64,000 nucleotides of DNA from positions 3,360,001-3,424,000 of the forward strand of contig CATQHZ020000001.1 of the NCBI GenBank assembly GCA_958296135.2, given 5' to 3'. The notes under the pieces are model-generated. The model was given only the letters and a program-made list of their open reading frames with translations, was not told the DNA's origin and ran no database searches. Below are positions 25,755 through 33,494 of this stretch, piece after piece. This DNA comes from an uncultured Poribacteria bacterium (lineage in GTDB: Bacteria > Poribacteria > WGA-4E > WGA-3G). How positions within the stretch are numbered: the first letter of the stretch is position 1; the number at the start of each line of letters is the position of its first letter. A program made the translations under genes and the position numbers.

Positions 25755-25812
25755 ACGCAAAAACGTATAATAGAGCCCGGTAGGCGCGGTTGCAAACTGC
25801 GCTAAATTTTTG

Positions 25813-25840
25813 TTGACATCATTTGTGATTGTGTTATATT
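25813..25840 (+). promoter_or_regulatory. Putative sigma70 promoter
   Basis: TTGACA-16 bp-TATATT with an extended TG. Confidence 0.55.
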
Positions 25841-26419
25841 ATTCTCCAATTAACATAGGACAGACGCTGCAAGAACCCCGTGCTGGAACCTAACGCTGGC
25901 GCGGTCCTAGTAGGAGGCATCCATGATGAAACGATTTATTACAGCATCCCTGCTCTGCGTCCTCACGCTTTTTGGGACAGGCGCGACGCAGGCCTTAGAC
26001 GAATGGGTATTCGTTGACATTGAACCCTACGCAAACACGAAACTGGTCGACCACGAATGGTGGACGCTCGCCAAGGGGGACAGCACTTTCTCCCGCCTGC
26101 CAATCGGCGAGGTAGAGGATTTTGACGGCCCCGATAAAAAGGTCCAATTCCAGATTATTGACGGGGCCATCGTCATTTTCGGCACTAACGCGGCGAAGTG
26201 GCCGAAGGCAGTCGAAGACATCGTCGTCGATGGCAAGGCGAAGTTTATCTATTTCCTCCATGCAACCGGATGGGAACAGAACGGCGTGCCGAGTTACAAA
26301 TTCGTCATGAACTATCAGGATGGCAAAAAGGAGGACGTTCCTAGCTTCCGAAAATCGAGACACATCGTGATAAAAGCGGATTTATCGTGATAAACGCCAA
26401 CATAAGTGCTATACGAAGT

Positions 26420-26673
26420 GTTACCGTGTTGGGCTCGGTCGAGCGTGCAGTGTTATTCGGGAGACCGAATAACACCTCTTCGGCTCAGCAGATCGTGCAG
26501 TGTTTTTTGTAATAACAAAAAACACATCTTCGGAAACCGGTTTGGAAACCTTTGCAAACCTGCCTACACGAGCTGCAGCAGCGTGTATTCACGCTCGCCT
26601 ACACGCCCGCCCGCCAATGATATCACCGCCAGCGCATTGCCCATCCTAGTGATATAGGCGAAACACGGCAGAC
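26420..26673 (+). ncRNA. Candidate structured RNA upstream of tnpB
   Basis: Two 11-bp hairpins in a duplicated 50-nt module, plus long-range helices 26424-30/26662-68 and 26440-47/26590-97. Confidence 0.55.
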
Positions 26674-26684
26674 GGGAACACCTC

Positions 26685-27767
26685 ATGAAAACGCATAATA
26701 TTGCACTGCGCCCGACAACGGCACAGGTTCAACAATTTCATCAGCACGCGGGATACCGCCGATTTGTCTATAACTATGCTTTGTCCGATTTCAAAGCAGG
26801 GTTAGCTGAAGGCGAATGGCGGAATGGGCGCACGCTACGCACTCGGTTTAATGCCGTAAAAGATACGCAGTTTGACTGGCAGAAACCGCTCATCGCCCGC
26901 GTGGCATCACATGCCTTTGATGATTTTAACACGGCGTGTCAACGGTGGAAAAACAAGCTGTCCAAGTTTCCAAAGTATAAGCGGAAGTCGGGTAAGCAGT
27001 CGTTTCGCGTTGACAATAAACGCAATGCGATAAAATGTGAAGGTAAACGGCTTTACCTACCGAAGATAGGTTGGGTGCGGACGTTTGAAGCGTTGCGGTT
27101 TAAAGGTGACGTGATGCGCGTAGTGATTAAGAAGCGAGGGCATCGTTGGTTTGCATCGGTGCTCGTCGAAACCCTGTCAATGGTTTCCAAGCCCGATTTA
27201 CGTGGTTTGCCTACCGTGGGCATCGATGTCGGTATCAACACCCTCGCCACTTGCTCCGATGGACGCACTTTTGAAAACCCGCGCGCCTTGGCCCGTTTTC
27301 AACGTCAACTCCGCCGTGCGCAACGCGCCCTAAGTCGTTCAGTCTATCGCAGTCAGAATTGGTGGAAGAAGAAGGAACGTGTTGTCCGTATCCACTATCG
27401 TATCGCTTGCATCCGCGAAGACGCGCATCACAAGGCCAGCACGGCGATTGTGAAAGGTGTCTCAGCAATCGGTATAGAATCTCTGAACGTGAAAGGCATG
27501 ATGAAAAACCGCCGGCTTGCGAAGGCATTATCAGACGCGGCACTCGGTGGATTTCTCTCCAAGTTGAAGACGAAAGCACAGGCACTTGGCGTGCATATTG
27601 AGGAAGCCTCTCAGTGGTTCGCTTCATCGAAGACGTGCAGTGCTTGTGGACATAAGAAGGATACCCTCACGTTATCGGAACGTGACTATCACTGCAGCGG
27701 GTGTGGATTGCGGATAGACCGCGATTTGAACGCTGCAAGGAATTTGGAACCCTCGCCGCTGGTTTGA
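26685..27767 (+). CDS. tnpB: RNA-guided endonuclease TnpB
   Basis: HTH N-terminus (HNIALRP...AG..RFVYNYAL), RuvC D/E/D in GIDVG, IESL and DRDLNAARN, zinc finger CSAC...CSGC. Confidence 0.95.
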   Translation: MKTHNIALRPTTAQVQQFHQHAGYRRFVYNYALSDFKAGLAEGEWRNGRTLRTRFNAVKDTQFDWQKPLIARVASHAFDDFNTACQRWKNKLSKFPKYKRKSGKQSFRVDNKRNAIKCEGKRLYLPKIGWVRTFEALRFKGDVMRVVIKKRGHRWFASVLVETLSMVSKPDLRGLPTVGIDVGINTLATCSDGRTFENPRALARFQRQLRRAQRALSRSVYRSQNWWKKKERVVRIHYRIACIREDAHHKASTAIVKGVSAIGIESLNVKGMMKNRRLAKALSDAALGGFLSKLKTKAQALGVHIEEASQWFASSKTCSACGHKKDTLTLSERDYHCSGCGLRIDRDLNAARNLEPSPLV

Positions 27768-27919
27768 CGGAGAGGTAAAACGCCTGTGGAGCTCGTGTCA
27801 GACCTCAATGTAAACGCATTTCAGTGTGTTTCGGAGGCAGTGAGTGTTGAAGCAGGAACTTTAGAAATCGGACAAACTCATACGGACTTGTCCAGATATG
27901 TCTCGATTTCAGGGAACAG
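27768..27919 (+). ncRNA. TnpB omegaRNA (reRNA) scaffold
   Basis: Lies between tnpB and the right end. Contains AACGCCTGTGGAG...GTCAGACC...GGCAG...TGAAGCAGGAA, as typical of TnpB right-end RNAs. Confidence 0.75.
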
Positions 27920-28253
27920 GAACTAGAGATGATCTCCGGTTTTAACTCCGATGATTGGTGCCACGAAGGAACTGAGCTCAAGGACGATAATTCTGTCTGG
28001 GGCTGGATTAAAAAGGAAGGCCCGCCCTGTGGGCACGCCGGGCTCATTACCACGAAGTGGGAAAACCCGCGACCCGATGTCAAAATCGCGACGATAGACG
28101 CTATCTCTCTTGAATTAGGCTCCGTGCCTGTCATTCCGGCGATTACGTTAGGCGAGGCGACGCTCGCCGTAGAACCAGCGGAGAAATTGGCTATCACGTG
28201 GGGCAGTCTGAAACGCGTTCGTGATGAACTCTAGGAGTCTGTTTAACGCAAGG

Positions 28254-28294
28254 AAGCGCGAGACTGGATTTCGTTCCACGGCTCGCGCTTTTTG
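28254..28294 (+). terminator. Rho-independent terminator
   Basis: AAGCGCGAG...CTCGCGCTT stem followed by a T run. Confidence 0.6.
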
Positions 28295-28355
28295 TTTGCA
28301 TCCTTAACATGAACGGCGGGAAACCATAGAAATCTGCGCAAAACGAAAAATTTAT

Positions 28356-28384
28356 TTGCAATTGTGCCGTTTTTGTGTTAAAAT
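28356..28384 (+). promoter_or_regulatory. Putative glyA promoter
   Basis: TTGCAA-17 bp-TAAAAT with an extended TG. Confidence 0.6.
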
Positions 28385-28420
28385 TCTGTTTTCACGAATG
28401 CACGCACGGAGAAAAATGAA

Positions 28421-31053: not shown

Positions 31054-31136
31054 CCGGAAGCGTTATGGAAACGTGCCTACCAGAAATGAGAGATTTGCGC
31101 AAGTCCTATTCACAAAAAAATCCATAGGAGGAAATA

Positions 31137-33494
31137 ATGCTTGAAATCAGTTCTCAAAGCGTAAAGCGTGGGAGTCGACTCCTGCAAATGTTGATAGTTC
31201 CGCTACTCGGGCTCGGTGTAGTCGAGAAGGCTTTTGCCCAAACCGCTGCCCTCCCCGCCGTGCCAACTGCATGGTGGATTGCCCCGGTCGGCTCCCTTAT
31301 CGCTTTAGGATTCGCATTCTATTTTTACCGTGCTCTCATGAAACAGGATGAGGGCAACGCCACCATGCGCGATATTGCGCAATCCGTGCGAGAAGGCGCG
31401 ATGGCCTACCTCAGACAGCAATATAAAGTCGTCGGCATCGTTTTCGTTGTGCTGTGCCTCATCTTTCTGTTTATGGCTTTTGTCCTGAACGCGCAAAACC
31501 AAGTCGTCCCGTTCGCCTTCCTCACCGGCGGATTTTTCTCCGGGCTCTGCGGGTTCCTCGGCATGAAAACCGCGACCAACGCCTCTGCGCGCACAACAAG
31601 TGCAGCAATGCAAGGCCTGAACGCCGGGTTGAAGGTCGCCTTCCGTGCAGGCGCGGTAATGGGGCTCGTCGTCGTCGGCTTCGCGCTCCTTGATATCACC
31701 GGGTGGTTTCTCATCCTCTACTATGTCTTCCCGAAGGTATTCCCCGGATTTTTGGCGGAGAACCCACTGCCAGAAATTACAGTGATTATGCTGAGCTTCG
31801 GGATGGGCGCGTCAACGCAAGCACTCTTCGCACGCGTCGGCGGCGGCATCTATACGAAAGCGGCCGATGTCGGCGCAGACCTGGTTGGAAAGGTAGAGGC
31901 AGGAATCCCAGAGGATGACCCGAGGAACCCTGCCGTTATCGCAGACAACGTGGGTGATAACGTTGGCGATGTCGCAGGGATGGGGGCAGACCTCTACGAA
32001 TCTTACGCAGGTTCTATCCTCGCGACAGCAGCCCTCGGTGTCGCCGCTGTTGCCGCAAAGGAGCACGATAACCTCGCGCTCCAACTCAAATACCTCTCAG
32101 CACCGATGATTATCGCGGGGATTGGCGTGCTCCTCTCAATCCTGGGCATCTACATGGTGCGGACGAAAGAAGGCGCATCAATGAAGCAGTTGATGAGTTC
32201 GCTGAACCTCGGCATTAACGGGAGCGCGCTCGGCATCGCGCTTTTGTCCATTCCTGTGTTGCTCTACCTCGATTTGCCCAACAAATGGCAGATTTGGGGC
32301 GCGATTGTCACCGGGCTCGCCGCCGGCCTGATTATCGGCAAAGTCACGGAAGTGTTCACTTCTCACGATTATGCGCCGACGCGCGCCATCGCGAAGCAGG
32401 CGAAAACCGGACCCGCCACCGTAATCATTGAAGGCATCGCGGTGGGAATGGAATCTACCGCCATTCCGGTTCTGACGATTATCGCCGCGGTGGCCATCAG
32501 TTATTATCTCCCCGGCGGTACAAGCGCGCCATTGATGGGACTCTACGGTGTCGGCATCGCCGCAGTCGGCATGCTCGCAACGCTCGGTATCACGTTGGCA
32601 ACCGATGCCTACGGCCCCATCGCGGACAATGCGGGTGGAAACGCCGAAATGTCTGAATTGGAAAAGAGCGTTCGAGAACGCACTGACCAGCTCGATGCAC
32701 TCGGAAACACGACAGCTGCAACAGGAAAAGGGTTTGCCATCGGCTCGGCGGCACTCACCGCACTCGCGCTTTTGGCTGCTTACCTCGAAGAGATACGATA
32801 CGGCCTGAAACACCTCGCGGGCATGGATACACTGACTATCCCCGGTGAAGGCAGCATTGATACACTGAAGGTGACAATCAACCAATTCATGGTATACTAC
32901 AACGTCACGCTGATGAATCCCCAAGTACTGATCGGGCTGTTTATCGGCGCGGTGATGGCGTTCTATTTCTGCGCGCTCACGATGAAGGCAGTCGGCCGAG
33001 CAGCAGGAGCCATGGTAGAAGAAGTTCGCCGCCAACTCCGAGAGAAACCAGGCATCATGAAGCGCGAAGAGAAGCCGGATTACGCGCGATGCGTTGAAAT
33101 CTCAACCGCCGGGGCGCAACGGGAAATGATTTTTCCCTCGCTCCTCGCGATTATTGTTCCTGTTGCTGTCGGCTTAATTTTTAATGTCGCCGGGGTGCTA
33201 GGACTCCTCGCAGGCGGGTTAGCCAGCGGATTCGTGTTGGCTGTCATGATGGCGAATGCAGGCGGCGCATGGGACAACGCCAAAAAGTTCATCGAACAAG
33301 GCGCACACGGCGGCAAAAACTCCGAGGAACACAAAGCCACCGTTGTAGGCGATACCGTCGGCGATCCGTTCAAAGACACCGCCGGGCCCTCGCTGAATAT
33401 CTTGATTAAGTTGATGTCAATGGTTTCCGTGGTGTTTGCAGGCCTCATCGCCAAATATGGCGGCGCAGTCAGCGGATGGTTGGGCATGCAATAA
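31137..33494 (+). CDS. hppA: Membrane-integral pyrophosphatase, K+-dependent type (probably Na+-translocating)
   Basis: DVGADLVGKVE, DNVGDNVGD, GNTTAATGKG (Ala at the K+-dependence position), GDTVGDPFKD. Confidence 0.93.
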   Translation: MLEISSQSVKRGSRLLQMLIVPLLGLGVVEKAFAQTAALPAVPTAWWIAPVGSLIALGFAFYFYRALMKQDEGNATMRDIAQSVREGAMAYLRQQYKVVGIVFVVLCLIFLFMAFVLNAQNQVVPFAFLTGGFFSGLCGFLGMKTATNASARTTSAAMQGLNAGLKVAFRAGAVMGLVVVGFALLDITGWFLILYYVFPKVFPGFLAENPLPEITVIMLSFGMGASTQALFARVGGGIYTKAADVGADLVGKVEAGIPEDDPRNPAVIADNVGDNVGDVAGMGADLYESYAGSILATAALGVAAVAAKEHDNLALQLKYLSAPMIIAGIGVLLSILGIYMVRTKEGASMKQLMSSLNLGINGSALGIALLSIPVLLYLDLPNKWQIWGAIVTGLAAGLIIGKVTEVFTSHDYAPTRAIAKQAKTGPATVIIEGIAVGMESTAIPVLTIIAAVAISYYLPGGTSAPLMGLYGVGIAAVGMLATLGITLATDAYGPIADNAGGNAEMSELEKSVRERTDQLDALGNTTAATGKGFAIGSAALTALALLAAYLEEIRYGLKHLAGMDTLTIPGEGSIDTLKVTINQFMVYYNVTLMNPQVLIGLFIGAVMAFYFCALTMKAVGRAAGAMVEEVRRQLREKPGIMKREEKPDYARCVEISTAGAQREMIFPSLLAIIVPVAVGLIFNVAGVLGLLAGGLASGFVLAVMMANAGGAWDNAKKFIEQGAHGGKNSEEHKATVVGDTVGDPFKDTAGPSLNILIKLMSMVSVVFAGLIAKYGGAVSGWLGMQ

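Follow-up and report, generated by a model that had tools for sequence, protein, structure and literature searches.

A 64,000-nucleotide window of DNA from an uncultured Poribacteria bacterium (contig CATQHZ020000001.1 of assembly GCA_958296135.2, positions 3,360,001 to 3,424,000 of the forward strand) includes an insert that interrupts a gene for a protein with a signal-peptide-like N-terminus. Judged from its sequence, this insert is very probably a non-autonomous IS607-family insertion sequence that carries only tnpB and a right-end omegaRNA, and in the copy located in the window, referred to as the focal copy, the host gene would have been broken at the DNA level with no removal of the element at the RNA level. 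The focal element is one of eight copies of a family, named family A, present in the source genome. As the target motif of this family is the Shine-Dalgarno core, its copies are found mostly in the few bases that separate the ribosome-binding site from the ATG, and since this motif is strand-specific they lie in sense orientation.

Structure of the focal element and of the interrupted gene

The focal element encompasses nucleotides 26334 to 27919 of the + strand (1586 bp), as defined by copy identity, common ends and empty sites. The left flank finishes ...GGCAAAAAGGAG (also given as ...AAAAAGGAG) at nucleotide 26333, and its last five nucleotides (26329-26333, +), located directly 5' of the left end, are AGGAG, the target or transposon-adjacent motif (TAM), which at this locus is an internal Shine-Dalgarno look-alike. 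The right end of the element is ...TTTCAGGGAACAG and the right flank opens with GAACTAGAGATG. The 5' part of the host gene (25923-26333, +) consists of 137 codons and includes the signal-peptide-like N-terminus; the 3' part (27920-28234, +) consists of 104 codons and a stop, and within it a 101-aa frame begins at an internal ATG (27929). Joining the flanks by script generated a single open frame of 137 + 104 codons (241 aa). Six orthologues in related genomes, each a single open reading frame (ORF) of 246-267 codons measured from stop to stop, are continuous over the break, where the sequence ...DGKKE-ELEMISG... aligns gapless; therefore no residue was lost or gained at the insertion. This reading covers six loci, three further loci together with L033 and L037 being left out. 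When the N-terminal half was used as query, matches were found in 12 of the 24 other genomes of the taxonomic family and in neither of the two of the genus, and Pfam had no match for either half. The interrupted ORF is a conserved but dispensable gene, precisely split. An earlier note on this DNA, made from the sequence alone, had described the insert with these coordinates and junctions and a 241-aa frame restored by its removal, and the sequence and the orthologues agree with it on both.

The conserved left end (26334-26430, +) was identified by repeat analysis and alignment of the copies. It includes two subterminal direct repeats ATCGTGATAAA at 26364-26377 and 26384-26397 and the left arm of a 22-nt terminal inverted repeat, in which nucleotides 26352-26373 pair with 27888-27909. 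It is followed by a variable insert of the 5' non-coding part (26431-26634, +, approximate limits taken from the alignment) that is missing from four short copies; two 50-nt units in tandem, both of which contain an 11-bp hairpin, are found within this insert in the long copies (26429-26528 in the focal copy). The tnpB gene (26685-27767, +) is intact and codes for a 360-aa protein with Pfam matches to HTH_OrfB_IS605, OrfB_IS605 and Cas12f1-like_TNB; tblastn gave an unbroken match over residues 1-360 in all eight copies. The protein aligns end to end with TnpBs of solved structure, and the motifs GIDVG, IESLN and DRDLN, which hold the RuvC residues D, E and D, fall on conserved columns. In the ORF list of 26334-27919, tnpB is the sole sense ORF of at least 100 aa and no tnpA was found; the copy is thus non-autonomous. 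The right end (27750-27919, +, start approximate, finishing ...GGAACAG) contains the omegaRNA scaffold, for which a consensus fold from 11 sequences (copies and relatives) has 29 predicted pairs, of which 14 show compensatory changes; according to this modelled fold the family A scaffold is a conserved structure. By analogy with the published TnpB mechanism, nucleotides 27920-27939 (+), which hold the ATG at 27929, would be the guide flank of the omegaRNA. The intact RuvC D/E/D, the subterminal repeats, the ...GGAACAG end and the lack of tnpA, all of them listed in the earlier note, are borne out by these data.

Other features of the element were also observed. The units at 26429-26528 open like the left end of two other tnpB families of this genome, B and C (GGGCTCGGT...GCAGTG), fragments of them are found elsewhere in the genome, and they resemble a small repeat lodged within the long copies. 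Two long-range pairings were considered and set aside. One, I3, would join 26566-26584 to 27780-27798, and its left arm sits in the segment missing from the short copies. The other, I4, joins 16 nt in the 5' portion of the tnpB coding sequence (26780-26795) to the omegaRNA region (27861-27876) with 15 of 16 positions complementary; it is kept in all eight copies and is not found in the related element of a sister genome, with no compensatory change. Pair I4 can be either chance or a pairing between mRNA and guide RNA.

Copies of family A and their empty sites

The eight copies show 87-100% DNA identity, and their TnpB genes, unbroken in every case, code for proteins with 92-100% identity (tblastn). 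All open GACGTTCCTAGC... and finish ...TTTCAGGGAACAG, and their right flanks are unrelated. The sequence RGAG precedes each of them (AGGAG in four, GGGAG and AGAG in two each), as it does in the sister-genome element. Left flank and right end have the dinucleotide AG in common in all eight copies. The presence of AGGA at both junctions, noted before, is literally true of the focal copy, whereas in the other seven only AG is common to left flank and right end because the right flank varies; likewise, the GG core that had been assumed must be replaced by AG in this family.

Comparison with related genomes located the ends. At the sites of copies 1521761 and 1930896 both sister genomes of the genus are empty, and ...AAGGAG is followed directly by the spacer and the ATG. 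The reverse situation was found in the window itself, where an empty target site upstream of hppA (31126-31139, +) reads AGGAG, GAAATA, ATG; in sister genome G002 this site is occupied, exactly where AGGAG meets the spacer, by a related element (TnpB 71% identical) flanked by ...CCATAGGAG on one side and by AAAATAATG of hppA on the other. The hppA gene matches H_PPase in Pfam with E = 3.8e-268. There is no target duplication at the compared sites (the two sister copies and the G002 element). The element ends are confirmed to the base by empty sites in related genomes. A DNA search of 40 related genomes found family A confined to the source genome, plus one 69% match, and no close relative emerged when metagenomes were scanned with TnpB, the identity of the best match being 41%.

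Two neighbors of these loci deserve mention. A frameshifted family B tnpB (G000:C1:1928825-1929899) lies just upstream of copy 1930896 and forms with it a small element cluster. Locus L200 (G001:C71), from a sister genome, is an end-only derivative of about 470 bp with the left end after CACAAGGAG and a right end including the guide RNA scaffold, without tnpB.

Probable assignment to the IS607 family

About 33 tnpB loci were counted in the source genome, and they fall into three groups, A, B and C. Families B and C start after AGG(G) and finish ...GCGG, the classical IS607 pattern. Among 160 loci of TnpB relatives (the best 80 from each of two collections, 31-71% identical), a serine tnpA is also encoded at 81, in 63 cases with a match of at least 120 aa on the same strand, and the genome itself includes three serine tnpA genes, each adjoining other tnpB genes. 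According to the accessible part of Ren et al. 2024 (PMC11061315), the TAM of IS607 TnpBs whose guide RNAs are of the RAGATH-18 type is AGGAG (18 of 22 strains) or GAGGG, and the family A flank consensus RGAG fits this published TAM class by flank sequence. The Firmicutes relatives, in which RAGATH-18 is present, finish ...GAGTGGCAG (...GGCAG) after AGGAG. In CboIStron, an IS607-type element, the TAM is TGGG and the right end TCGG, with discrimination at position -3, according to the available portion of a preprint (bioRxiv 10.1101/2023.11.20.567912); by analogy, the xGAG flank and xCAG right end of family A mirror this logic. The logic of ends and target, the serine tnpA beside relatives and the Firmicutes AGGAG class therefore place family A in IS607; as read from these sequence features, it is a non-autonomous member of the AGGAG class. 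The label of transposase-less IS607-like TnpB element given in the earlier note, and the disruptive insertion mobilised in trans that it had offered as one possibility, are supported by the logic of ends and target and by the serine tnpA genes found beside relatives and elsewhere in the genome. IS607 TnpB-only elements and the AGGAG TAM are already known, and the focal event is ordinary; the lineage is new for AGGAG-class IS607 TnpB elements.

The sole tnpA-tnpB pair with a family C tnpB (L023 1325-3196, G000:C1:~3725929-3727800) has a TGA within the N-terminal helix-turn-helix of tnpA. Two further IS607-like units (L024 342-2058 and L025 363-2061, minus strand) consist of a serine tnpA of 207-208 aa overlapping a TnpB-like gene of 517-523 aa that the TnpB tblastn (E<=1e-5) missed. 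Contig C2 of the source genome (143,886 bp) has a G+C content of 36.8%, compared to 54.4% for the chromosome, and may be a plasmid, a phage or contamination.

Location of the copies with respect to genes

Five of the eight copies lie between a Shine-Dalgarno-like RGAG and an ATG located 4-9 nt past the right end. The genes behind them code for MutS, a TPP enzyme, an M24 peptidase, an ABC ATPase and a macro-domain protein, and their first Pfam domains start at residues 6-26. The focal copy reproduces this arrangement inside an ORF, where AAGGAG, 9 nt and an ATG opening 101 codons form a look-alike, and including it an ORF of at least 100 aa starts from an ATG at +4 to +9 in six of the eight copies. 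Of the remaining two, copy 4547372 splits a 61-codon ORF that is only a candidate gene (Pfam found nothing for its two pieces, and an impression of likeness to HicB was unconfirmed), and the other lies between convergent genes. Genome-wide, an ATG at +4 to +9 opening at least 100 codons follows 3.2% of RGAG, 4.1% of RRGAG, 9.2% of AGGAG and 18% of AAGGAG sites; against this background of 3.2-18%, six start-proximal copies in eight correspond to P = 2.8e-8 to 6.8e-4. For families B and C the start-proximal copies are 3/10 and 1/12, with an AGGG background of 1.7%. All three elements or relics found in the two sister genomes are 6-8 nt upstream of an ATG: the full copy at hppA (G002), the end-only derivative (7 nt upstream of a TPR/AhpC-TSA gene) and a 5'-truncated relic at floA.

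A similar distribution was found in the Firmicutes relatives with RAGATH-18. An ATG at +4 to +10 opening at least 100 codons is present at 28 of 42 sites, with a peak of the spacing at 6-7 nt, and any start codon at 0-15 nt in 32 of the 42, compared with a background of 14 in 130 AGGAG sites of the same flanks (P = 9e-18 for 28/42). The sites were taken by a strict right-end pattern with a flank of at least 330 nt, one per distinct 25-nt flank, shorter or duplicate matches being left out uncounted; the loci, chosen for the similarity of their TnpB, do not represent a random sample, nor are related hosts independent of each other.

About 97% of RGAG sites are not start-proximal. Since ORF-internal RGAG sites predominate but hold only one or two of the eight copies, selection against ORF insertions is suggested. 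We infer that ORF insertions are lost faster than spacer insertions; alternatively, the transposase may have a wider target preference. No paper linking IS607 or TnpB targets to the Shine-Dalgarno site or to a start-codon-proximal niche was found in a search that left most subscription journals and supplementary tables outside its reach. Wording on ribosome binding, Shine-Dalgarno or start codons is absent from the accessible part of PMC11061315, the available portion of the IStron preprint (bioRxiv 10.1101/2023.11.20.567912) lacks Shine-Dalgarno, ribosome or start-codon wording, and RAGATH-18 does not appear in the main text of Weinberg 2017.

Predicted effect on the downstream gene

Every ORF located downstream of a copy has its full length. 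The 3' end of the 16S rRNA is ...GGATCACCTCCTTTCT, and its predicted pairing with the 20 nt before the ATG is -7.4 to -12.7 kcal/mol in the native state and -4.9 to -6.6 kcal/mol when the site is occupied. Random 20-mers give -4.2 +/- 2.7 kcal/mol. The occupied-state pairing is near the random mean and translation is therefore expected to drop rather than persist. The right end (AGGGAACAG) was considered as a surrogate Shine-Dalgarno sequence, and because of this near-random pairing any replacement would be weak; the idea was dropped as the main explanation.

The mutS copy (G000:C1:1521761-1523152, L008 1413-2804) lies between AAGGAG and the ATG of a gene that starts at L008 2811 and has 895 codons, with MutS_I starting at residue 11; here the predicted pairing falls from -12.7 to -4.9 kcal/mol. 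From this prediction, lower mismatch repair caused by the copy in the mutS leader is conceivable. The hppA gene of G002 located behind the related element (L039 3710-6063) lacks 1 nt in the conserved region GDNVGDVAGMG and otherwise has 90-92% protein identity to the intact 785-aa gene at 31137-33494. The deletion may reflect either decay after silencing, which would make it a pseudogene, or an assembly error.

Alternative explanations

Several observations weigh against the interpretation of the focal element as an IS607-family insertion that broke its host gene. Both halves of that gene are free of stops, and inspection of the alignment by eye, with no tool count, indicated that they keep the residues common to all orthologues; stop-free halves fit a recent insertion and would also be compatible with a still functional gene. 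TnpB is as similar to that of the IS605-type ISDra2 (1.9e-46) as to entry 8iaz (5.3e-46) and, because these matches are equally strong, TnpB alone cannot separate IS607 from IS605. Most IS607 members finish in GG, according to the part of a review that was available (PMC13565253), and family A finishes in AG after xGAG. The RAGATH-18 model (RF03064) had no match at E<=1 in two family A copies (L001, L005) or in the G002 element (L039), while in the same search the Firmicutes relatives used as positive controls, L080 (6e-12) and L099 (4e-11), did match. The one serine tnpA beside a family C tnpB, which is moderately related, carries an in-frame TGA. Finally, RGAG as the TAM of this TnpB is deduced from the flanks, and the family A ends are predicted, by analogy, to be substrates of a serine transposase.

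These points bear on two rival explanations of what the element is. It could be of the IS200/IS605 type, a TnpB-only (IS1341-like) element that a Y1 HUH transposase would move in the form of single-stranded DNA. IS605 also inserts 3' of a fixed short motif without duplication, the ISDra2 match just mentioned would suit such an element, and the genome has two Y1_Tnp matches; these matches, however, are in open frames of 274 and 226 aa that do not adjoin any listed tnpB locus. The targets of IS200/IS605 elements are AT-rich (PMC13565253, available part) whereas that of family A is G-rich, the left end has direct repeats, apparently instead of a subterminal hairpin, serine tnpA adjoins half of the TnpB relatives, and families B and C finish in GG after AGG(G) as IS607 elements do, all of which makes an IS200/IS605 origin unlikely. 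The other proposal, raised as a possibility in the earlier note, was an IStron-like element that removes itself at the RNA level, the transcript splicing it out and restoring the host mRNA. The focal copy, and possibly also that in the 61-codon ORF, is sense-oriented within an otherwise intact frame, the 22-nt inverted repeat could bring the transcript ends together, and IS607-type IStrons do exist and have 5' exons ending in G, as does the left flank of the focal copy (PMC13565253, available part); since this is so of those IStrons too, the G at the junction is no argument either way. The introns of published IStrons are recognised by the Rfam group I model (bioRxiv 10.1101/2023.11.20.567912, available portion), but a search of 25800-28400 with the 4227 Rfam families at E<=10 yielded no group I intron or ribozyme, only two chance matches (E = 2.9 and 3.6), and at E<=1 no intron or ribozyme was found in L001, L005, L039 or the family C element of L023. 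An IStron would be expected to have a long conserved 5' non-coding region. This region measures 351 nt in the focal copy, about 180-205 nt of it are lacking in the four short copies, and the stretch common to all copies is about 160 nt (the first ~90-100 nt and the last ~65 nt). Furthermore, although the great majority of RGAG sites are ORF-internal, one or two of the eight copies are within ORFs, the focal one with certainty and copy 4547372 possibly. No run recorded as RNA was found to contain the stretch; it is covered by four contigs of unknown kind from one sample, which have occupied junctions only, none joining 26333 to 27920, and are uninformative on splicing. From the Rfam search, the 5' region and the location of the copies, we consider RNA-level removal extremely improbable, and a candidate IStron outside Firmicutes is removed from consideration, leaving the focal event as a plain insertion in a dispensable gene. 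The genome-wide survey of copies that had been proposed as its refutation did place most copies outside ORFs; their distribution, on the other hand, is not the random one anticipated, since they occupy Shine-Dalgarno-to-ATG spacers.

This distribution raises a third explanation, that the host keeps the family as a regulator, with spacer copies that would adjust how strongly the next gene is translated and with the focal copy as a by-product. The predicted weakening of 16S-tail pairing upon insertion is compatible with it, as are the decayed relics that with an intact right end still lie 7-8 nt upstream of floA and of the TPR/AhpC-TSA gene in the sister genomes. Against it, all eight TnpB genes are intact and 92-100% identical in protein, as expected of a selfish mobile element, and a target motif together with loss of ORF insertions accounts for the pattern more simply. 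We regard such a regulatory role as very unlikely.

Proposed mechanism and implications

The interpretation as a non-autonomous IS607-family element suggests the following scheme, which draws on published work. A serine transposase provided in trans would cut and paste the element as double-stranded DNA through a circular intermediate. Insertion would occur without target duplication directly 3' of RGAG (AGGAG-like) sites, with AG as the probable crossover dinucleotide, and excision would be scarless. Next, TnpB guided by its omegaRNA would cleave the empty site, made up of AGGAG and some 20 nt that match the flank, and recombination would restore the copy, favoring its retention. The focal copy would have landed on an internal look-alike (AAGGAG, 9 nt, ATG) in a dispensable secreted-protein gene.

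A broader possibility, which we put forward tentatively and consider rather doubtful, is that AGGAG-type IS607 elements are specialised residents of the ribosome-binding-site spacer, where insertion would weaken and scarless excision restore translation, acting as a reversible switch. If this were true, the specificity of transposase and TnpB would have settled on the Shine-Dalgarno core, so that every gene would offer a landing pad that is transcribed, sense-oriented and non-coding. The genes subject to the switch would be mutS and those for the TPP enzyme, M24 peptidase, ABC ATPase and macro-domain protein, as well as hppA and floA in the sister genomes, and the natural omegaRNA guides would span start-codon regions, a situation from which TnpB-derived repressors could eventually arise. 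In two distant phyla, the ribosome-binding site seems to serve as the address of a class of RNA-guided transposons. Targeting of this site would explain why AGGAG is the common target of IS607 TnpBs and predicts effects on translation of neighboring genes, for example mutS in the source genome; the rule would also be a simple way to locate element boundaries and natural guides.

Comparison with known systems

The closest published counterparts are the RAGATH-18 IS607 elements of the ISFba1 type, which have a TnpB of about 360-390 aa, a guide RNA in the right end and an AGGAG-type motif 5' of the left end (Ren et al. 2024, PMC11061315, accessible part). The Firmicutes relatives examined here share with family A a right end ...CAG and copies just upstream of start codons. 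Family A differs from them in its TnpB, only 32-36% identical, and in an omegaRNA without a RAGATH-18 match. It also lacks tnpA in all eight copies, has a Poribacteria-like host, and follows a looser motif, RGAG, which includes GGGAG and AGAG.

CboIStron, a group B IStron, is similar to family A in that the same dinucleotide is found in the flank and the right end and in that TAM and right end differ at position -3; IS607-type IStrons also retain TnpB without tnpA, and one family A copy is, like them, sense-oriented inside a gene (available parts of bioRxiv 10.1101/2023.11.20.567912 and PMC13565253). Unlike IS607-type IStrons, family A has no group I intron by Rfam, its 5' region is short and variable, it uses AG instead of GG, and most of its copies are outside ORFs.

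The names IS1341-type and PATE are usually filed under IS200/IS605. Family A resembles these TnpB-only elements and the short end-only PATE and MITE (miniature inverted-repeat transposable element) derivatives in being non-autonomous with an intact tnpB and in having a two-end derivative of about 470 bp in a sister genome; it differs from the IS1341-type and PATE elements of IS200/IS605 in that its evidence points to IS607.

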